From: Vulcanimicrobiales bacterium
GTDB lineage: Bacteria; Vulcanimicrobiota; Vulcanimicrobiia; Vulcanimicrobiales; Vulcanimicrobiaceae
DNA length: 17,732 nt
Reading direction: 5' to 3'
Assembly: GCA_038231455.1 (NCBI GenBank)
Contig: JBBRLI010000038.1
Location: 1 to 17,732 of the forward strand
The notes beneath the pieces were generated by a model. That model made no database searches and was not told where the DNA came from. It was given only the letters and a program-made list of their open reading frames with translations. The translations under genes and the position numbers were made by a program. Shown piece by piece: positions 6,550 to 16,191 of the stretch (the first letter of the stretch is position 1; every line of letters begins with the position of its first letter).

Positions 6550-7779
6550 TTAGGCGAGCGGCGTAACGCTCGCGGCGGCTTTCTTCGCCTTCACGCGCGC
6601 CGCGTCGGTATCGTCGGCGCGTGCGACCGCCACGCCCATGCGACGGCGGATGAACGCTTCGGGCTTTCCGAAAAGCCTAATGTCGACGCCCGGGATCGAG
6701 AGTGCTTCGCGCACGCCTTCGTAACGGATCCCCGATGCTTCCATGCCGCCATAGATGACGGCACTCGCGCCCGGCCGCGCGAGCGTGACGTCGACCGGCA
6801 GACCGAGAATCGCGCGAGCGTGCAATTCGAATTCGCTCTGCCACTGCGTTGCAATCGTCACAAGTCCGGTATCATGCGGTCGCGGACTGACCTCCGAGAA
6901 CCAGACCATGTCGCCTTTCACAAACAGCTCGACGCCGAAAACGCCGCAACCGCCAAGATCATCGGTGACGGCTTTGGCGATCGCCTGCGCGCGTTCGAGC
7001 GCGGCCGGCGCCATTGCATGCGGCTGCCAGCTCTCGACATAGTCGCCATGAACTTGCACGTGGCCGATCGGGGCGCAGAAACGCGTTTCGCTGTTGCCGT
7101 GTGCATCGAGCGCACGTACGGTGAGCAGCGTGATCTCATAGTCGAAATCGATCGCGCCTTCGACGATCACGCGGCCCGCATCGACGCGGCCGCCTTTCGC
7201 CGCGCAATCCCAAGCCGCATCAATTCCCTCGGCCGAATCCACTTTGGATTGCCCTTTGCCCGACGATGACATGACGGGCTTGATGAAGCACGGGTAGCCA
7301 ATCTCGGCAACCGCTTCACGCAGCGCTTCAATCGAGCCGGCGAAACGGTACGCTGACGTTGGAAGGCCGAGTGTCTCCGATGCAAGTCGCCGGATGCGTT
7401 CGCGATTCATCGTCATTTGCACGGCGCGCGCGGTCGGAACGACCATCTGGCCCAGCGCTTCGAGTTCCGCTAACGTATCGGTTGCGATCGCCTCAATCTC
7501 CGGCACGATCAAGTCGGGCTTCTCGATCGCGATGACGCGCTTAAGCGATTCGGGATCGCTCATATTGATGACGTGCGCGCGGTGCGCCACTTGCTGCCCG
7601 GGGGCATTGGCGTAGCGATCGACCGCGATGACTTCAACGCCGAGTCGTTGCAGCGAAATAATAACTTCTTTGCCCAGTTCACCGCTACCGAGCAACATGA
7701 CACGCGTTGCCTTCGGGCTCAGCGGCGTCCCAATGACGGGATTGCTTCGGTCAAAAGATGGACTGAAGGATGTCGGCAT
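6550..7779 (-). CDS. purT: Formate-dependent phosphoribosylglycinamide formyltransferase (ATP-grasp)
   Basis: Motifs [67 protein letters not shown] and RLFGKP...RRMGV. AAGGGG RBS upstream. Confidence 0.97.
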
Positions 7780-7858
7780 AGCGCCCCTTAGACGACATGT
7801 GCCGGGAACCGGTTCCTACGAGGTATGGCGCGGGCGGACTGCTTAAAACAGGCCAGGT

Positions 7859-8518
7859 ATGGACAATCGATTGGTCGTCGTCGACCACCCCGCCGTCGCC
7901 GACCGTCTCGCGCGCTTGCGCGACCGCACGGCAACAACGCCCGTGTTTCGGACGCTAGTCGAAGAATTAGGTCTCTTTCTCGCCTATGAAGCGACGCGCG
8001 GTCTGATTTTGCGGGACGCGACGGTCGAGACTCCGCTTCAGCCAATGACCGCCAAGCGGATCGCAACGCGCCCCGTCGTGGCGCCGATCTTACGCGCGGG
8101 CCTCGGACTACTCCCCGGATTTTTGAGTGTCATCGACGATGCGGTCGTCGCACATCTCGGATTCTATCGCGATCCCAACACGCTCGTCGCCGTGCCGTAC
8201 TACGCAAACTTGCCGGATGAACTCGCCGAACGCGATGTCTTCTGCGTCGATCCGATGCTCGCAACGGGACACTCGGGATCGGCGGCAGTCGCGATGCTCG
8301 AGTCGCGCGGCGCGCGCAGCATTACGTTCGTCTGCATCATCGCCGCACCCGAAGGTGTGAAGTTTTTGCTTGACGCGCATCCGACGATCCGCATCGTCGC
8401 AGGCGCGCTCGACACGCATCTCAACGATCACGGGTACATCGTGCCAGGGTTGGGCGATGCCGGCGACCGTATGTTCGGGTCGACGAGTTCCGTCCCGGTA
8501 AGCGTTCGACCGACCTAA
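7859..8518 (+). CDS. upp: Uracil phosphoribosyltransferase
   Basis: Motifs LRD..T, VETPL, PILRAG, PRPP-binding loop VDPMLATGHS, AAPEG and YIVPGLGDAGDRMFG. Confidence 0.97.
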   Translation: MDNRLVVVDHPAVADRLARLRDRTATTPVFRTLVEELGLFLAYEATRGLILRDATVETPLQPMTAKRIATRPVVAPILRAGLGLLPGFLSVIDDAVVAHLGFYRDPNTLVAVPYYANLPDELAERDVFCVDPMLATGHSGSAAVAMLESRGARSITFVCIIAAPEGVKFLLDAHPTIRIVAGALDTHLNDHGYIVPGLGDAGDRMFGSTSSVPVSVRPT

Positions 8519-8590
8519 CGCACGTCGACGACCTCTCTTGCCTTACAACTCAGCCGTCTTACAACGTAACGAATCGGTCGGAGACACACA

Positions 8591-9088
8591 TTGAATCAGT
8601 CGGAAAATCTGTCCGGCCGCACGACGTTTTCACTTCCGGATTATCGTGCGATGCTCTCGGTGACGAGTCGGCGGCTCGGATTTACGCAAGCAAAGGCCTT
8701 CCGGTACTCGGCGCTCGTTGGAATTGCCGGGTTCTTCGATACCACGAATTGGTCGGCCGTGTCGATCGCCTTCGGTGTGGTTGCAATCGCTCTGTACGCC
8801 GGCGCTTTCTGGATTGGGAACCGGACCTCCAAAATTTGCGCGGATCACGATGTTGGCGTCGAGCAACAGTATTTGGTCGGCGAGGACGGCGTGACGATTC
8901 GCGAAGTTGACAGTGAAGCACGCTATGGCTGGTCGCATTTCGACGCCGCATTTGAATCGCCGACCGTTTTTGCGCTGCGACACGGAATCGCGAGTGTGAT
9001 CCTACCGCTGCGCGCGTTTTCTTCGAACGACGTGTCGCGCGTTCGCGCGCTCATCTCGACACATCTGACAATTGCCCCAATGAAGTAA
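8591..9088 (+). CDS. YcxB-family membrane protein
   Basis: TTG start 7 nt after GGAG. Two N-terminal TM segments, then the YcxB-like C-terminal pattern EDGVTI...RYGWSHF...ES...ILPLRAF. Confidence 0.72.
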   Translation: MNQSENLSGRTTFSLPDYRAMLSVTSRRLGFTQAKAFRYSALVGIAGFFDTTNWSAVSIAFGVVAIALYAGAFWIGNRTSKICADHDVGVEQQYLVGEDGVTIREVDSEARYGWSHFDAAFESPTVFALRHGIASVILPLRAFSSNDVSRVRALISTHLTIAPMK

Positions 9089-9118
9089 GAGCACGCTTAA
9101 GTGCTCGCCGAGTCGCCG

Positions 9119-9142
9119 CTTTAAAACCTAAAGTCCGGGTAT
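9119..9142 (+). promoter_or_regulatory. Putative SigB/SigF-type general-stress promoter
   Basis: CTTTAA (9119-9124), 12-bp spacer, GGGTAT (9137-9142), close to the SigB consensus GTTTAA-N12-14-GGGTAT. Lies upstream of a general-stress-type gene with an AGGAGG RBS (9161-9166). Confidence 0.5.
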
Positions 9143-9173
9143 CAGCGCTTAGCCACCAACAGGAGGGGCATTT

Positions 9174-9680
9174 TTGATGGATACTCTGGTTACCGGTACG
9201 TTTCATGACGAAGCAGCAGCAAATCGCGCGATCGATCGTCTCGTCGATCTCGGCTATCCCAGCGATGACATCAGTGTCATCATGAGCAAAGAAACGCGCA
9301 GCCACTTTGAAAAGAATGCGGCTCCCGGTGAATCACAGGGTGCGCATATTGCCAAGGGCGCGGCAGGCGGAGCCGCAATCGGCGGAACGCTCGGCGCGCT
9401 GGTCTTAGGCGCACTCGCAACGACCGGCGCCGTCGGCGCAACGGTCGCAACGGGGGGTATCGCTGGCCCGTTCGTCGTCGGACCGCTCGCAGCAGCACTT
9501 GCCGGTGCGGGCGCAGGCGCAGCGGCCGGTAGCGGCCTCGGCGCGATCTTCGGTGCGGCAACCCCGCACGAGACCGTCGAAAAAGTTCAAAAAGATGTCG
9601 ACGCAGGACACATCGTCGTCGCCCTTCATGCCGAAGCGGATGATGTCGCCGAAGCCGAGACCATCCTGCACCACGGATAA
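9174..9680 (+). CDS. General stress protein (YflT-like N-terminal domain plus Gly/Ala-rich glycine-zipper membrane segment)
   Basis: AGGAGG RBS; start is TTG 9174 or ATG 9177. Sequence VTGTF...AANRAIDRL...GY...DISVI, then GAAGGAAIGGTLGAL...VVGPLAAALAGAGAGAAAG, and C-terminal GHIVVAL...AETIL. Confidence 0.8.
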   Translation: MMDTLVTGTFHDEAAANRAIDRLVDLGYPSDDISVIMSKETRSHFEKNAAPGESQGAHIAKGAAGGAAIGGTLGALVLGALATTGAVGATVATGGIAGPFVVGPLAAALAGAGAGAAAGSGLGAIFGAATPHETVEKVQKDVDAGHIVVALHAEADDVAEAETILHHG

Positions 9681-9702
9681 CCGCAAGTCGGTAAAAATGA
9701 CG

Positions 9703-9740
9703 GAGATGAGAGAGCGGTACTCTCTCATCTCTTTTCATTT
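9703..9740 (+). terminator. Intrinsic terminator after the stress-protein gene
   Basis: Perfect 12-bp stem GAGATGAGAGAG-CGGTA-CTCTCTCATCTC followed by TTTTCATTT. The flanking AAATGA/TCATTT can extend the pairing. Confidence 0.8.
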
Positions 9741-9826
9741 GAGGCGTAGCACGTACTCGGGTTACAGGGCGTGGAAGCATGCTAGCGAACCGCGAACCGA
9801 AGCGCCTGTTGGCAAAGGAGTCGACC

Positions 9827-9949
9827 GTGGAAGAACGTCCAAAAGAAGAATCGGCGATTGAATCGGAAGTGCAGCAACCGGACCCCAAAAAAGAATTGCA
9901 CGGGACGGCACACCCGCCCGCGAATGAAGGCGTTATTCCCTCGAATTAA
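9827..9949 (+). CDS. Small acidic, hydrophilic hypothetical protein (40 aa; 56 aa if the in-frame ATG at 9779 is used)
   Basis: Below the ORF-track cutoff. AAGGAG lies 6 nt before GTG 9827; translation MEERPKEESAIESEVQQPDPKKELHGTAHPPANEGVIPSN*. Confidence 0.5.
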   Translation: MEERPKEESAIESEVQQPDPKKELHGTAHPPANEGVIPSN

Positions 9950-9976
9950 CCCGCCACCAGAGGAGCGATTTCCGGG

Positions 9977-10455
9977 ATGCATCGTTTATCCATCGGTACT
10001 TTTCGATTGTTTCATCAGCGGGGCTGGCTCTTTCAGGATGCTCGGGCGGGAGCACGGCCTTGCCGCCAGCGTCGACGACGGTCATTTCCGGTGAATATCT
10101 GGGTACGACGACCGATCCGGTTGGCGGCGCGCAGCCGGCAGCTACGACATTCGCGCAACACGGAAACGCCGTTGGCGGAACGTTAATCATTGGCGCGGGG
10201 CCGACGAGTACGCCGGAGTCGATCGCACTCACGATCTCCGGTTCGGCTCTGAGCGGAAGCGGCACGGCGACCTTTAACGGGACCGTCTGCACGTTTGCGA
10301 TCACTGCGACATATACCAATAATCAGATTAGCGGAACGTACGTTCCGGTCGGCGGGTGCGCCGGGCGAAGCGGCACGATCTCGCTCACACAACAGTGTGC
10401 GAACCCCGCGGCATCGGTCGCGCGTCGTGCGCAGGGCGTCGTGCCCTCCTGCTAG
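9977..10455 (+). pseudogene. Beta-rich, Cys-containing lipoprotein whose start is out of frame (frameshift near 10000-10003 or non-canonical start)
   Basis: The frame of ORF 10060..10455 extends upstream through ...FSIVSSAGLALSGC-SGG (lipobox LSGC) but has no ATG/GTG/TTG between the TGA at 9925-9927 and the lipobox. ATG 9977 (AGGAG at 9961-9965) is in another frame; adding one T to the TTTT run at 10000-10003 gives MHRLSIGTFSIVSSAGLALSGC. Confidence 0.55.
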
Positions 10456-13007
10456 ATCGTTTGTGCGAGCGCGACGGCGCGCTCGTCGTCGAGATCGGCG
10501 CCTTGCGCGAAGAGTAAGGCGAGTTTTTGCTCATCGTAGGCCGCGCGTAGCTCGCTCAGGAGTCGCTCGATGCGCAGTTCGTCGGTGTTGTCGGGTTTCC
10601 AACCTAAGTCCGAGAGCCGCGCTTGCGAATAGCCGAAGAGTTGAGCGGCCGCTGCGAGGTCGACGTGTGCAGCGACCGCCGCTAGATAGCTGATCGCGTT
10701 CGCGATGATGGCAGCATGATTCGATTCGTAGGCAAGTTGGAGCACTTCGCGCGCGGCCGGGCCGCCGCGTTCGATATCCGGGATTGCGAGTGCGCTTGCA
10801 GCTACGTTGTTGAGCGCGTAGAGACGCAGGTCGCCCGTCGCGAGGTTCAACGCTTCAAGCGAGAGCTCGATGCCGCGTTCGAATTCTCCCGCGCCGATTT
10901 CGGCGATCGCCCACCAGTTGAGCGCGTTTGCGATTTCGTAGTCGCGCCCGAGCGTTCGGAAAAGCGCAACACACTCGGCATAATCGGCGCGTGCGCGCTC
11001 AAGTTCTTCGGCGCGATAGATGATACCGCAGCGTTGCAACGTCGATGCGATGAGGCGCGCCTCGCCGAGCGCCCGTGCCCCCGCGATCGCCTCGGCCGCG
11101 AGTGCGACGGCATCGTCGTAGTTGCCTTGGCGCCCAACTTGCTGCGCTAGTTGTGAGAGCGCGCGAACCAGGCCGCGCGTGTCATCGCTTTCGCGATAGC
11201 GTTCGACCGCGCGGCGCACGTCCGCACTCGCAGCAGTCAGTGCGACGCGATTGTTGTTGAGCATTGACATCCCGTAACGCAATCGCGCCTCGACGCTTGG
11301 CGGCAGAATTCCCGCTCTTGTTAACGCTTTCTCGCACCAGGAAACGCCTTCTGCCAAGAGCGCTAGGCGAAGGAACACCGGGACGCAATCACCGGCCAGT
11401 CGCGCACCGAGTGCCGGATCGTTCGCTTCATCGACCGACCACGTGAGCGCGACGCGAAGATTGTCGAGTTCCGCGCGCATCCGGGAGAGCCAGTCGGCAC
11501 GTGGCGCGTTGTCCCACTCCTCGTATGCGGTTGCCGCAAGGGCCGCGAAGAACGCCGCATGTCGCCACGCGACATCCGCCGATTCGCCTTCGGCAAGCCG
11601 GTCGCGCGCGTAGTCGTGGATTGACTGCAGCATGTGATAGCGCTGGCCGGCGTCATCGATTTCAGCGACGACGAGCGACTTGTCGACGAGCGAAGAGAGT
11701 AAATCGAGCGCGTCGTATGGCTCGATTGGATCGAATCCGGCTATGTCGGTAATCGCGTCGAGCGTGAATGTGCCGCCGAAAGCGGCAGCCCGTCGAAAGA
11801 GCGCTGCTTCGCTATCGACAAGAAGATCGTAGCTCCAATCGATGAGCGCGCGCAGCGTTTGCTGATGCGGCAGCGCCGTGCGGGTCCCACCCGTGAGGAT
11901 CCGGAAACGCTCGTTCAATCGGCGCGCGAGTTCGTCGACCGAGATGACCCGCACGCGCGCTGCCGCAAGTTCGATTGCAAGCGCGAGTCCGTCGAGCCGC
12001 TTGCAGATCGACTCGACCGTTACGGCGTTGGCCGGCGAGAGTTCGAAGAGCGGATTGCTAGCGACCGCGCGTTCGCAGAAGAGTTTCACCGCCGTCGTCG
12101 TGTCAAATGGCTTTAGGCGGTACACGCGTTCCCCCGCAAGATTGAGCGATTCGCGGCTCGTCGCGAGGATCGTGGCCGCCGGGCACGCATTGACGATCGC
12201 AGTAACGACGCGCGAGACTTCGGCAACGATGTGTTCGCAGTTGTCCAAGACGAGGCCGACGTTTCGCTGGCCGATCGTGCGAACGAGCGACTCGATCGGG
12301 GGACGCTCGCCGCCATCGGTCGCGCCGATCGTTGTCAGGATCGTCGAGGCGATAAGCGCGGGATCTGATATCGGCGAGAGATCGACAAACCAGACGTCAT
12401 CGCCGAGGTCGTCTTTTTCCATTGCGGCTGCCAGCGCAAGCCGCGTTTTGCCAACGCCACCCGGCCCGACGATCGTGACGAGCGGCGCCTCACCTAAGAG
12501 AGCGATGACGCGCGTGAGATCCTCACTACGGCCGATAAAGCTCGTGCCCATGCGCGGCAAATTGCGTTGACGGCGGGGCGATTCGGCTTTGGTGCGTTTG
12601 GGTGCGAGCACGTTGCGCACGGCGCCCGGGAGCATCGCAAGCGCTCCGGCAAAATCGTCGAATGCATCGAGCCATTGCCGGCGTCGGAGATAAAATTCAG
12701 CCCCAGCGTACGGATCGATTTTTTCGATGCGCACGCTCAGGATGGGCAGGCTGCGGCTCGATGCGAGTTCGAGTTCGTTGAGTACCGCATCCGAGTCGTT
12801 TGCGGCGCGTGAATACACGAGCACGACGATGCGGCTTGCGGCGATCGCGTCGACAAGGAAATGCGCGTACGACACGCCAGGCTTACCGTCGCGTGGTGCG
12901 ATCCAACAGGTAAGGCCGTCGGCCTCGAGCGCTGCGCAAATGGCATCCGCTGCCGCGCGGTCGAACGTCGAGTAGCTGATGAAGACGTCGTGTGCGTTTG
13001 GCGGCAC
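10452..13007 (-). CDS. TIR domain + STAND/AP-ATPase (NB-ARC-like, COG3903-type) + TPR-like helical repeat protein
   Basis: Probable GTG start at 13007, 2 nt after the upstream stop (the ORF track extends to TTG 13064). TIR: HDVFISYS...GLTCW...DAIAASRIVVLVYSRAANDSDAVLNELELA. ATPase: NLP...SFIGR, Walker A GPGGVGKT, Walker B LVLDNCEH, LATSRE, GLALAIELAAAR, TLRALIDWSYDLL, LVDKSLV. The C-terminal third has alanine-rich TPR-like repeats. Confidence 0.9.
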   Translation of the reverse strand: MPPNAHDVFISYSTFDRAAADAICAALEADGLTCWIAPRDGKPGVSYAHFLVDAIAASRIVVLVYSRAANDSDAVLNELELASSRSLPILSVRIEKIDPYAGAEFYLRRRQWLDAFDDFAGALAMLPGAVRNVLAPKRTKAESPRRQRNLPRMGTSFIGRSEDLTRVIALLGEAPLVTIVGPGGVGKTRLALAAAMEKDDLGDDVWFVDLSPISDPALIASTILTTIGATDGGERPPIESLVRTIGQRNVGLVLDNCEHIVAEVSRVVTAIVNACPAATILATSRESLNLAGERVYRLKPFDTTTAVKLFCERAVASNPLFELSPANAVTVESICKRLDGLALAIELAAARVRVISVDELARRLNERFRILTGGTRTALPHQQTLRALIDWSYDLLVDSEAALFRRAAAFGGTFTLDAITDIAGFDPIEPYDALDLLSSLVDKSLVVAEIDDAGQRYHMLQSIHDYARDRLAEGESADVAWRHAAFFAALAATAYEEWDNAPRADWLSRMRAELDNLRVALTWSVDEANDPALGARLAGDCVPVFLRLALLAEGVSWCEKALTRAGILPPSVEARLRYGMSMLNNNRVALTAASADVRRAVERYRESDDTRGLVRALSQLAQQVGRQGNYDDAVALAAEAIAGARALGEARLIASTLQRCGIIYRAEELERARADYAECVALFRTLGRDYEIANALNWWAIAEIGAGEFERGIELSLEALNLATGDLRLYALNNVAASALAIPDIERGGPAAREVLQLAYESNHAAIIANAISYLAAVAAHVDLAAAAQLFGYSQARLSDLGWKPDNTDELRIERLLSELRAAYDEQKLALLFAQGADLDDERAVALAQTI

Positions 13008-13009
13008 GG

Positions 13010-14602
13010 TCAGCCCGATCCCAACGGAACTTCGATCCGGCGGCCGCGTCGGAGTGCGAGCCAATCGGCGCTCTCGTGCAGTGCTTCTTTCCCGAGGTCA
13101 TCGGCAATGAGCGAACGCGCGTGAGCGTTGCGCGGTTCGTCCCACGCATCGAGTGCTTGCGTAAAGAGTAAATCCATGCCGGCCAGACGCGCCGCCTCCT
13201 CGGACATCGCGACTTGCTTAATCCATGCCCCGATCGTCCCCGCGAGCGCCGGCAAGACCCCCATGAGCAGAATGAGTTCATGCCGGTATGCCTGCAGCCA
13301 CGGAACGACGTGCCCCGCGATCTCGCCGAGCGCGGCAAGCAGTCCCATCGCGTAGACAACCGCGCTGATTTGGTTGAGACCGTTGAGCCCTCGCTCGCGT
13401 CGCCGGGCGCTCCGACGAAAATAGTCGCGCTGATCGACGATCCAGGCGCGCACGACGGCCTCATCGATTGGTGCGTGATGCGCGGTGCACGCGGTGCGCC
13501 GTCGCGCGAGCGTCTGGAGCACCGCGTCGTCCGTTGTGAATGCGCGCAAGGCAAATTGAATCCAACGCAATTCATTCCGGTGCTTCCGTAAGTAATATTC
13601 GGAAACGGACCAGTTCAGACCGCTGCGCACCCACATGAGTTGGATGCGAAGCGCCTCAGCCAACGTTCGATAGTCGAGGTGCCGCTGCTCGAAATTCGCA
13701 CGTCGTCCGACGAACCATATGACCGCCCCGAGTCCCAGTGCGCAAAAGTAGACGAGCAGCGATGTGAACGGGTTACCGTATTCAGAGTAGACGGCGTAGG
13801 AGACCACAAGGAACGTCAGACTTGCAAAGACAGCCGCTCGCGCGGCGCGTACGCGTCCTTGCATGTGGAGCGCAAAGGCATCGGCGTGCGTGAATGCGCG
13901 TTCGAGTGCGCTGCCGTCTGGCAGACCGCGTCCAGGCGTGGCGTTGAAAACGTCGATCTCCGCGAGTGATTCAAGATATGGAGCGATCTCGTCTTGGGCG
14001 ATGAAGCCGACATCGTGCGATGGGCGATGGTGCGGCGCACGCTGACGGCGAATCGGGATATGATAGACGAGCCCCGATTCGATCGGATCGGTCAGCGCAG
14101 CGTCGGATACGAGACGCCGATTGAGTTTTGATGCGGTCGTGAAAGCGGTACCGCCGATTTCCTCGCGTTCGGACCCATCCCAGAGAGCGAGTAGAAGCTG
14201 GCAGCGAACGGCGAGGAAATCGGCGAGCAGAGCGTAGGTATCGTCGTGTGTCTGTGTTGCCGCAGCGTCGAGAACGATCGGCGGCCGACCGACCAAGAAG
14301 CGGTCGAACGCGGCGCGTGCCGTCGCGTCATCCGCGAACGCGTTAGCAAAAATTTCCGCGCGCACCGGAAGCACGGGCACGAGTTCTGCTCCGAACGTCA
14401 GTGCGATCTCGGCGACGAGTTGATCGGCGCCGGCGGCGAGTCCGCAGAACACGCGCAGCGGTGTGGACGGGAAGCGCTTTGCGAGCACCCGGAAAAACGT
14501 TGTGATGCTCGCGACCGTCTCGTCACGATCCTCGGCCAAGAGGTCGCGGTGTCCGGTCACCCCGATGAGGAGCGGAATCCGGTAGTCGGCTCCGGCTTGC
14601 AT
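13010..14602 (-). CDS. SLOG (SMF/DprA-LOG superfamily, YspA-like) domain fused to two SLATT-like 2-TM domains
   Basis: N-terminal IGVTGHRD, CGLAAGADQLVAE, VLP and LLALWDG...GGT are SLOG motifs. Then AD..A + 2 TM + HLDYRTLAEALR (SLATT/DUF4231-like), followed by WIVDQRDYF + 2 TM + ALHESADW (second SLATT-like unit). Assigned from motif recognition, not an HMM search. Confidence 0.75.
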   Translation of the reverse strand: MQAGADYRIPLLIGVTGHRDLLAEDRDETVASITTFFRVLAKRFPSTPLRVFCGLAAGADQLVAEIALTFGAELVPVLPVRAEIFANAFADDATARAAFDRFLVGRPPIVLDAAATQTHDDTYALLADFLAVRCQLLLALWDGSEREEIGGTAFTTASKLNRRLVSDAALTDPIESGLVYHIPIRRQRAPHHRPSHDVGFIAQDEIAPYLESLAEIDVFNATPGRGLPDGSALERAFTHADAFALHMQGRVRAARAAVFASLTFLVVSYAVYSEYGNPFTSLLVYFCALGLGAVIWFVGRRANFEQRHLDYRTLAEALRIQLMWVRSGLNWSVSEYYLRKHRNELRWIQFALRAFTTDDAVLQTLARRRTACTAHHAPIDEAVVRAWIVDQRDYFRRSARRRERGLNGLNQISAVVYAMGLLAALGEIAGHVVPWLQAYRHELILLMGVLPALAGTIGAWIKQVAMSEEAARLAGMDLLFTQALDAWDEPRNAHARSLIADDLGKEALHESADWLALRRGRRIEVPLGSG

Positions 14603-14701
14603 TGACCCACTATGTTGGCATGCGATGCCGCTTTGTCATGCACCCCGTCCTACAAGGGCACTGCGGGCCCGGCGGACGCGAGCGCGAATAGTGTTCTCTC
14701 G

Positions 14702-15187
14702 GTGCATGATAATAAGCCGTCCTCTGATGACCGTCGGACTCTTGGAGCGACACGCCCCGGATGGGACGAGTATTTCATGGAGATCGCGCGCTCTGTCGCG
14801 ACGCGGGCAACGTGCCCGCGCGCCAGCGTCGGCGCTGTCTTGGTTCGCGCGCACCGAATCCTCACGACCGGCTATAACGGTGCCCCCCGCGGCGTGGCGC
14901 ACTGCACCGAAATTGGCTGCCTGCTCGCGAACGAACATTGTCAGCGGGCCACACACGCCGAGGCAAACGCGATCGTTCAGGGTGCGCTTCACGGCGTCGG
15001 CCTTGAAGGCGCGACGGCGTACTGCACGCATCAGCCGTGCGTCAACTGCACGAAACTGCTGATCAGCGCCGGCATCGAGAAGATTATCTACGAGCAGGCC
15101 TATCCCGATGCGATTGCAACGCAGCTTCTCTCCGAGGCCGGAGTCGCACTCGTGCCGTTTTCCGCGCTCGAGAAAACGCGCAAGTGA
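14702..15187 (+). CDS. dCMP deaminase (cytidine/deoxycytidylate deaminase family, ComEB-like)
   Basis: Motifs [28 protein letters not shown] and PCVNC (Zn ligands). Start uncertain: GTG 14702 preferred over ATG 14612. Confidence 0.92.
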
Positions 15188-16191
15188 GCAAGCTCTACAT
15201 TCTCATCACGATCGTGATCGCCATGATCACGGCGTATGCGACCACGCCGGCGGTGCGCCGACTGGCGCTGCAGGTGGGGATGCTCGATGAAACCGGCGAG
15301 CGCCGGATGCACGATATTCCGAAGCCTCGTATCGGCGGTATTGCCGTGTGGCTCGGCTTTGCGTTCGCTCTTTTTTCGATCGCGGGTTTTGCAATCGCTC
15401 GCCATCAATTACGGGATCTCGACTCGATCCACAATATTCTCGGCATCCTCTTCGGCGCAACGCTGATTTTGGTCGTTGGCATTTGGGACGACGTCATGAC
15501 GATGTCGGCGCGCAACAAGTTCGGCTTGCAAATCGTCGTCGCATCGGTCTCGATGCTTTACGGCTTCATCATTCAGGGTGTCGACTTACCGTTCACGCAC
15601 GATAAGTTCGTCGCGTTTCCGCTTTACGTGAGTATCCCGGTCACGCTGATCTGGTACCTCGGCATGATGAACGCAATCAACTTCATCGACGGACTCGACG
15701 GCTTACTGTCAGGCCTCACCGTCATCGCGGGCACCTCGATCATGCTGATCGCCTATCAGCACGGTCACACCAGCGAGACGCTGATCCTCGCCGCACTCAT
15801 CGGCGGCGCGCTCGGCTTTCTACCGCACAACTTCAACCCCGCAAAAATCATCTTAGGTGATTCGGGGGCGCTGTTCATTGGGTATGTCTTCGCCACGACC
15901 TCGATCATCGGCGGGAGCAAAACCGCGATCTCGGTGAGTTTACTCTTGCCCGTCATCGCGCTCGCGCTTCCGATCCTCGATACCGCCGTCACCATCGTGC
16001 GTCGCACGCGGGCGGGGAAAAAGATCACCGAAGCCGATCGCGGTCACTTCCACCACCAGCTCATCTTTCGATTCGGGCTGAACGTCAAACAGGCAGTTTT
16101 ACTGATCTATGCGCTCTGCATCGTCCTCGGCGTCGCCGCGCTCTTACTCTCCAATGGCATCGGCGGCACGCATTTCGCGCGGACGCTCTAA
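15184..16191 (+). CDS. MraY-family undecaprenyl-phosphate alpha-N-acetylglucosaminyl-1-phosphate transferase (TagO/WecA)
   Basis: GTG start overlapping the upstream stop (GTGA 15184-15187). Multi-TM protein with [47 protein letters not shown] and ADRGHFHH. Confidence 0.92.

Follow-up and report, generated by a model that had tools for sequence, protein, structure and literature searches.

A candidate Thoeris-like gene pair in a Vulcanimicrobiales bacterium joins a TIR-NB-ARC-TPR protein to a SLOG-SLATT membrane protein

Introduction

Can a bacterial NLR-like receptor headed by a TIR domain act as the signal-maker for a second protein? This question is raised by two adjacent genes on a 17,732-nucleotide stretch of DNA from Vulcanimicrobiales bacterium (contig JBBRLI010000038.1 of assembly GCA_038231455.1), hereafter the window, which is one entire contig of a 3.71 Mb assembly in 106 contigs rated 93.7% complete. 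Gene A (13010..14602, minus strand) encodes from an ATG start a 530 amino acid SLOG-SLATT-SLATT membrane protein that is predicted to be a signal-gated effector. Gene B (10452..13007, minus strand) encodes an 851 amino acid TIR-NB-ARC-TPR protein, a predicted sensor and signal-maker. Bacterial TIR-headed NLR-like proteins are usually interpreted as killers that act as single proteins and, as far as the available part of a published Thoeris census goes, were set aside in it. We lean towards the view, which we regard as somewhat likely, that the pair works as a Thoeris-like system, with an NLR-type sensor producing a NAD-derived signal that gates a SLOG-SLATT pore. The new element compared with the published Thoeris types is the STAND-fused signal-maker.

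Domain architecture of the two proteins

The two genes are separated by only two bases. The junction (13005..13012, minus strand) reads directly as the TGA stop of gene A at 13012-13010, cc at 13009-13008 and the GTG start of gene B at 13007-13005, and the longest open frame of gene B spans 10452-13064 on the minus strand. Both genes lie on the minus strand and the flanking genes on the plus strand, so that the tightly coupled pair opposing its flanks, described in an earlier sequence-only reading of the window, was recovered from the open reading frames (ORFs) and from the letters alike.

The N-terminal part of gene A (13958..14578, minus strand; residues ~9-215) was assigned to the YpsA/DprA type of SLOG domain on the basis of fold matches and invariant columns. 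In the AlphaFold model (pLDDT 88.5, pTM 0.86), this domain was aligned by VIA-align to YpsA with a Z-score of 15.0 (root-mean-square deviation 2.6 A, 159 aligned residues), followed by DprA (12.6), ShosA (10.9) and the LOG enzymes (~9); Foldseek also retrieved YpsA (E 8.7e-4). Seven columns, namely H18, R19, G58, D60, W141, G143 and G151, are invariant in 32 aligned homologues, and they include the GHR and GAD motifs pointed out earlier (H18 R19 and G58 D60). The sequence-only reading had set beforehand the lack of a SLOG fold as grounds for giving up its proposal; as modelled, the N-terminal domain of gene A has this fold. LOG hydrolases carry a Glu after the GGT motif. Since this Glu is missing from the gene A family, binding would be favoured over catalysis as the role of its SLOG domain.

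The C-terminal part contains hydrophobic 19-mers at residues 253-271, 281-299, 412-433 and 443-461, which form two hairpins of two transmembrane helices each. The first SLATT-like hairpin (13613..13909, minus strand; residues ~232-330) was delimited by sub-cut-off DUF4231 and SLATT_3 matches, hydropathy and the helices of the model, and the second (13046..13462, minus strand; residues ~381-519) by sub-cut-off SLATT_1 matches in Pfam and NCBIfam and by hydropathy. Below threshold, Pfam gave SLATT_1 (E 0.016, residues 388-475) and DUF4231 (E 0.051, residues 264-321), and NCBIfam gave SLATT_1 (E 0.0082) and SLATT_3 (E 0.017); no SLOG family was matched by gene A of the window in the Pfam and NCBIfam scans. 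Among the 32 aligned homologues, DUF4231 was matched by 12, SLATT_3 by eight and SLATT_1 by seven (E up to 0.01), and the SLOG families YAcAr and DprA by seven and three. Because of the fold matches and of the four hydrophobic segments arranged in two hairpins, gene A is a YpsA/DprA-type SLOG followed by two SLATT-like units, in agreement with the earlier description of SLOG motifs before four transmembrane helices. SLATT domains were reportedly defined by Burroughs and colleagues in 2015 through their association with SLOG and SMODS.

The effector family has many members: 72 relatives of gene A were found in a collection clustered at 90%, and 4,743 representative clusters were reached by profile search at E up to 1e-30. 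Scanning gene A with PADLOC gave nothing useful. Two of the ten longest family members are tandem SLOG-SLOG-SLATT proteins, and no fusion of a TIR domain to the effector was detected among these ten with Pfam and a TIR profile. Tandem SLOGs ahead of the SLATT part were observed in P0076 (836 amino acids) and P0146 (811 amino acids), in which a GVTGHRD-like motif is kept in both copies.

Gene B starts with a TIR domain (12606..12992, minus strand; residues ~6-134) that matches Pfam TIR_2 at E 7.2e-21 (residues 8-120). Its Glu78, encoded by codon 12774..12776 on the minus strand, occupies the conserved catalytic glutamate position of TIR domains; it is nearly invariant across 45 TIR proteins and invariant in 38 TIR-STAND-TPR orthologues from the fetched loci. 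The TIR domain is followed by an NB-ARC-type STAND NTPase (11598..12542, minus strand; residues ~156-470; Walker A at 12444-12467) and by a TPR-like helical repeat array (10461..11582, minus strand; residues ~476-849), the predicted ligand sensor. In the same 38 orthologues, the Walker A residues G184, G186, K187 and T188 and the Walker B residue D255 are invariant. Pfam matches were found to AAA_22 (E 6.7e-7) and TPR_12 (E 1.5e-6) and, under the cut-off, to nSTAND1 (E 2.1e-4) and NB-ARC (E 7.4e-4, 19.3 vs 23.5 bits). The catalytic Glu, the intact Walker A/B ATPase and the TPR-like repeats of the sequence-only reading thereby all hold.

The model of gene B (pLDDT 88.4, pTM 0.73) displays paired helices throughout the TPR region. 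Its best Foldseek match is an archaeal STAND-TPR protein (6mfv, E 1.8e-13, TM-score 0.61 on the target) and the second is the plant TIR-NLR RPP1 (E 2.7e-12), which makes the likeness to plant TNL proteins drawn earlier an apt one. Further matches include ZAR1, Sr35, the NRC proteins, CED-4, Apaf-1, Roq1 and WRR4A, the probability being 1.00 for 6mfv, RPP1, ZAR1, CED-4 and Apaf-1. When solved structures were searched by sequence, the TIR domain matched only the oyster TIR-STING (E 6.4e-6) and the STAND-TPR part only the P-loop stretch of ArsA. PADLOC retrieved TIR-only models and mad8 (E 2.4e-4). Given the Pfam domains, the invariant residues and the fold matches, gene B is a TIR-NB-ARC-TPR protein, a layout termed TNP by plant biologists. 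On account of its invariant Walker residues and the NB-ARC proteins found by Foldseek, its ATPase belongs to the NB-ARC/AP-ATPase clade of STAND NTPases.

Proteins of this type are widespread in the phylum of the window. Of 401 genomes, 326 contain STAND-TPR paralogues of gene B's type; a single genome has up to 74 first-look candidates, and most frames comprise 850-1000 amino acids. The phylum thus appears to hold a large NLR-like family whose members differ in their heads.

Linkage of the effector family to TIR genes

The neighbourhood of the effector was analysed in two sets of loci. A search across many phyla gave 600 pattern matches, of which 493 were relatives, and the best 80 loci from named genomes were kept. 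The phylum set consists of the 68 best-scoring matched places, genomes flagged as unpublished and several very short contigs being left out. TIR genes were searched with an iterated TIR profile on the stop-to-stop frames of the fetched loci.

In the many-phyla set, 44 TIR ORFs were found near the effector in 42 of the 80 loci; where both flanks span at least 3 kb, a TIR gene is present in 33 of 52 loci. Most of these genes lie within 2 kb of the effector (40 of 42) and on its strand (34 of 42). All 44 neighbour TIRs match Pfam TIR_2, as does gene B, and 21 of these 45 also match ThsB_TIR. They are mostly short proteins encoded just upstream of the effector, and NB-ARC was detected in only three of the 45.

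In the phylum set, a TIR gene occurs within ~7 kb in 43 of the 68 effector loci, and a TIR-STAND gene near the effector in 22, from ten genera. The gene order of the window, with no more than 11 nt between the two genes, was found in nine loci from four genera. In other loci, the TIR-STAND gene is upstream of the effector, convergent with it, or separated from it by a third gene. The genome of the window itself contains a single TIR ORF, which adjoins its single SLOG-SLATT ORF; its four other STAND paralogues are all devoid of TIR. These distributions indicate that the link between effector and TIR is not due to chance, and co-occurrence across genomes, a check proposed in the sequence-only reading, was found for effector and TIR in both sets (42/80 and 43/68 loci).

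Other partners were observed as well. A patatin-like phospholipase of ~420 amino acids (Pfam Patatin, E 4e-22) adjoins the SLOG-SLATT gene in 24 of the 68 phylum loci (L093-L158), for instance at L129:5727-7016 and L098:9347-10570; no such neighbour was found in the 80 many-phyla loci or in the window's own genome. In L095 (8949-14816), the sensor is split into a 507 amino acid TIR protein and a 1448 amino acid nSTAND1-WD40 protein (nSTAND1 E 4.9e-87), next to both SLOG-SLATT and patatin genes, and the 1448 amino acid type of protein recurs in 13 loci. In L104, L107, L108 and L109, all from one genus, SLOG-SLATT, a ~450 amino acid protein with a weak Vgb_lyase/propeller-like match and TIR-STAND follow one another on one strand. 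Finally, in L160 (genome G165, 7499-11449), a TIR-STAND gene is divergent from a gene encoding a 427 amino acid double-SLATT protein without recognisable SLOG (SLATT_1 E 1.2e-5, DUF4231 E 8.5e-5), which was missed by the whole-genome effector searches.

Co-occurrence, phylogeny and selection

Co-occurrence was counted in the 401 genomes of the phylum, some counts including genomes flagged as unpublished (G256, G192, G009, G284). The effector is present in 117 genomes, all in two families, and the TIR type of gene B in 58, of which 50 also carry the effector. The eight TIR-positive genomes without effector include three that are less than 85% complete. In the largest genus, the effector was found in 22 of 22 TIR-positive vs 17 of 58 TIR-negative genomes. 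Among 46 TIR frames of at least 800 amino acids, 15 lie within 5 kb of an effector and four at 5-20 kb, and 23 are located elsewhere in an effector-positive genome.

A tree was built by a quick search from 103 TIR domains sampled by proximity to the effector (106 columns, without outgroup from other systems). The TIR of the window falls into a clade of 56 rows (SH-aLRT 99). In this clade, STAND-fused TIRs, of which 16 are effector-adjacent and 16 solo, stand together with 21 short stand-alone TIRs that flank SLOG-SLATT genes; 15 of these short TIRs belong to other phyla. Since it shares this clade with short TIRs flanking SLOG-SLATT genes, the NLR encoded by gene B appears to carry a TIR type that elsewhere, as a stand-alone protein, pairs with the effector family. 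STAND-fused TIRs were also found in three other clades of the tree.

In a genome of the same genus, the pair is located at the same site, with 89% identity for gene B, 81% for gene A and 92-95% for the flanks. No synteny beyond the genus was detected in the 67 other loci. The spread is patchy (12 of 41 relatives), and the effector is found in 39 of 80 genomes of one genus. Compared with the same-genus copy, the ratio of non-synonymous to synonymous substitution rates (dN/dS) is 0.112 for gene A and 0.095 for gene B, and on these grounds both genes appear to be maintained by purifying selection. The dN of gene A is 0.125, roughly threefold the values of the flanks (0.033-0.045). In parallel, its dS against the same-genus copy (L091) reaches 1.13, higher than the 0.41-0.73 of gene B and the flanking genes; the effector alone may have undergone allelic exchange.

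Proposed mechanism and alternative explanations

In the mechanism that we propose, a trigger, most obviously a phage protein, would be bound by the TPR array of gene B, and the NB-ARC ATPase would oligomerise. The clustered TIR domains would cleave NAD+ into an ADP-ribose-derived messenger, and the cytoplasmic SLOG domain of gene A would bind it. The two SLATT hairpins would assemble or open in the membrane, leading to growth stop or cell death, and the pair would play an anti-phage role. If so, an NLR-type receptor feeds a bacterial second-messenger pathway, and the Avs/NLR branch of immunity is linked to the Thoeris branch.

A broader view is that the phylum runs a plant-like sensor/helper network, in which several TIR-NB-ARC-TPR receptors, one messenger and a shared SLOG-SLATT executor take part; we consider it possible but doubtful. 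The receptors, located near the effector or hundreds of kilobases away, would each sense a different trigger, and all of them would emit one diffusible NAD-derived messenger. Such a network would be a prokaryotic counterpart of the signalling that runs in plants from TNL through a small molecule to the EDS1/helper-NLR channel, and NLR-borne bacterial TIRs could then be signal-makers rather than NAD-depleting executioners.

Several observations weigh against the two-gene Thoeris-like reading. No TIR gene was found near the effector in 25 of the 68 phylum loci, and the closest relatives of gene B, whose TIR domains are 59-67% identical, do not adjoin the effector, 18 such loci sitting among housekeeping genes. 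Four of the 46 long TIR frames come from genomes in which the effector has no single-protein match. When five effector-negative genomes were searched with a profile, two gave weak partial matches and three remained without effector; in one of these three, a double-SLATT gene adjoins the TIR-STAND gene. In addition, the co-occurrence counts overstate independence because the genomes are related. The SLOG domain of ThsA, which binds cyclic ADP-ribose (cADPR), reached a Z-score of only 6.4 and is much more distant from that of gene A than YpsA and DprA are. The genes flanking the pair in the window are housekeeping ones. The enrichment in defence islands that the sequence-only reading had suggested checking was not borne out, as no such context was seen around the window pair or 21 related TIR-STAND/effector loci, where 90 neighbouring ORFs are mostly housekeeping with few PADLOC matches. 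Likewise, PADLOC gave no system-level match for gene A or gene B. Finally, bacterial NLR-like TIRs are generally taken as NAD-depleting executioners, according to the available part of 10.64898/2025.12.03.692087.

This last point leads to the main rival, which we hold to be unlikely: an NADase NLR that acts autonomously, its neighbour being unrelated. Gene B would then be a self-contained Avs- or bNACHT-like NLR whose TIR depletes NAD+, and gene A a separate module or a secondary amplifier. The linkage of the two genes would reflect shared mobility and gene A might answer another signal, an idea that we likewise judge unlikely. Such autonomy would suit the solitary nearest relatives of gene B, the 23 long TIR frames elsewhere in effector-positive genomes and the four without a match, the effector loci devoid of TIR, and the handling of Avs TIRs as NAD-depleting effectors in what is available of the published screen (10.64898/2025.12.03.692087). 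It fits poorly, however, with the two-base junction and with the recurrence of the window's gene order in four genera. By simple arithmetic, a frame placed at random in a 3 Mb genome would fall within 5 kb of the effector in ~0.3% of cases, far below the 15 of 46 observed. The co-occurrence in 50 of 58 genomes (in one genus 22 of 22, unlinked genes included) and the clustering of the TIR head of gene B with short TIRs that pair with the effector family also weigh against autonomy.

A housekeeping or stress-related role, in which a COG3903-like STAND regulator senses a cue and alters membrane permeability via a NAD-derived messenger, would account for the housekeeping flanks, the stable position within the genus and the missing defence-island signal. 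The abundance of STAND-TPR paralogues in the phylum points the same way, as does phage carriage, for which just two partial matches were found among 2.9 million viral contigs. We nevertheless consider this role quite unlikely: the spread is patchy even inside a genus (39/80), the genomic context differs in every other genus, gene A has a dN about three times that of its flanks, and the patatin and nSTAND-WD40 partners of sister loci are typical parts of conflict systems. Highly improbable, in our view, is a direct contact by which the oligomerised NLR recruits or opens the gene A protein without any diffusible messenger, the TIR and SLOG being related folds. Complex formation would be favoured by tight co-translation, but the pair is frequently unlinked and yet co-inherited, the effector family also pairs with short TIR-only proteins and with other TIR architectures, and the invariance of Glu78 points to catalysis.

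Neighbouring genes

Upstream of the pair, the window contains photolyase, glyA, purT, upp, YcxB-like and YflT-like genes; downstream are found a tadA-like deaminase gene (14612-15187, plus strand), a family-4 glycosyltransferase (GT4) gene (15037-16191, plus strand) and a UDP-GlcNAc 2-epimerase gene. The YflT-like gene lies at 9174-9680 on the plus strand. Between upp and this gene, the YcxB-like gene (8591-9088, plus strand) is without counterpart in the otherwise syntenic genome of the same genus.

A small conserved ORF of no known family (10060..10455, plus strand; no match in Pfam) converges on gene B and abuts its 3' end. Its identity to the counterpart in the same-genus genome is 81%, and weaker homologues abut the 3' ends of TIR-STAND genes at L096:9064-9792, L103:4568-5182 and L148:3738-4379, covering two or three other genera. 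As its homologues keep this abutting position, the ORF may be a third component of the system. A minus-strand ORF at 9933-10319 was also considered as a third gene and was dropped, the plus-strand ORF being better conserved. A scan of 9800-15000 for promoters and terminators gave nothing usable, with one promoter-like site vs 0.8 expected and nine terminator-like sites vs 5.1.

Comparison with known systems

The sequence-only reading had stated that the layout matches no canonical Thoeris or Avs system. This stands for the STAND-fused signal-maker, which is new, and not for the combinations of TIR with SLATT and of TIR with SLOG, which are published in the part available of the December 2025 bioRxiv preprint 10.64898/2025.12.03.692087. 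According to the same part, the Thoeris census discarded the TIRs of Avs proteins, and for this reason STAND-fused TIRs were probably left uncovered by it. Full-text literature searches retrieved no paper on the pairing of STAND-fused TIRs with SLOG-SLATT effectors and no experimental study of the SLOG-SLATT effector family. SLOG and SLATT are unmentioned in the main text of a STAND census (Nature 2026, PMC13581612) and of a domain-centric screen (NAR 2026, PMC13069673).

As in Thoeris in general, a TIR with the catalytic glutamate is linked here to an effector gene with a putative ligand-sensing domain. Unlike the stand-alone TIR of ThsB, however, that of the window is fused to NB-ARC and TPR domains. 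The closest type is type VII (ThsB and ThsH), in which a TIR gene and a SLATT-type membrane effector with a predicted membrane breach are also combined; it was validated, with cADPR as the signal, as described in the accessible portion of 10.64898/2025.12.03.692087. Compared by description with ThsH, the effector of the window differs in its N-terminal SLOG and its two SLATT units, and the TIR in its fusion to NB-ARC-TPR. Type I, whose ThsB acts with a SIR2-SLOG ThsA (effector as given in that portion) through 3'cADPR, resembles the pair in having a SLOG as presumed receptor of the TIR product. On the contrary, gene A has no SIR2 match in Pfam, its C-terminal part consists of four transmembrane helices and its predicted output is at the membrane rather than NAD depletion; the SLOG of ThsA matches that of gene A at Z 6.4 vs Z 15.0 for YpsA. 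Type III combines several TIRs with a SLOG effector, as cited in the portion of 10.64898/2025.12.03.692087 at hand, and the excerpted text of PMC13276650 (which refers to van den Berg 2024) assigns this SLOG to the SMF/DprA kind. The effector SLOG is thus of DprA type and not of STALD type in both cases, whereas the window genome has one TIR ORF in place of several. The NCBIfam model ThcB4 of type III was matched only at E 0.012 (14.5 bits vs a cut-off of 220), and no effector model was matched.

Avs/AVAST and bacterial NLR-related proteins share with gene B an N-terminal effector-type domain, a STAND ATPase and, C-terminally, a TPR sensor, and Avs3 is among its fold matches (E 9.5e-8). Nevertheless, no PADLOC Avs model was matched, the ATPase of gene B is nearer to NB-ARC/AP-ATPase members, and Avs systems are without a dedicated second gene bearing a nucleotide sensor, unlike the window pair.

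Plant TIR-NLRs (RPP1, Roq1, WRR4A) and TNPs (TIR-NBARC-TPR; PMC9806590, as partly available) have the same three-part order as gene B, and TNPs share its TPR tail. The likeness to plant TIR-NLRs is architectural and structural, at ~16% identity, and bacterial TIR-NB-TPR proteins are described in the available text of PMC9806590 as resembling TNPs in the NB domain only. In plant TNL signalling, small molecules are read by a separate receptor, as proposed for the window pair. Plant TNLs use EDS1, whereas the pair has no EDS1 and its proposed reader is the SLOG-SLATT protein. If this reading is true, the pair would offer a simple model in which two genes carry out a step for which plants need a TNL, the EDS1 family and a helper NLR.

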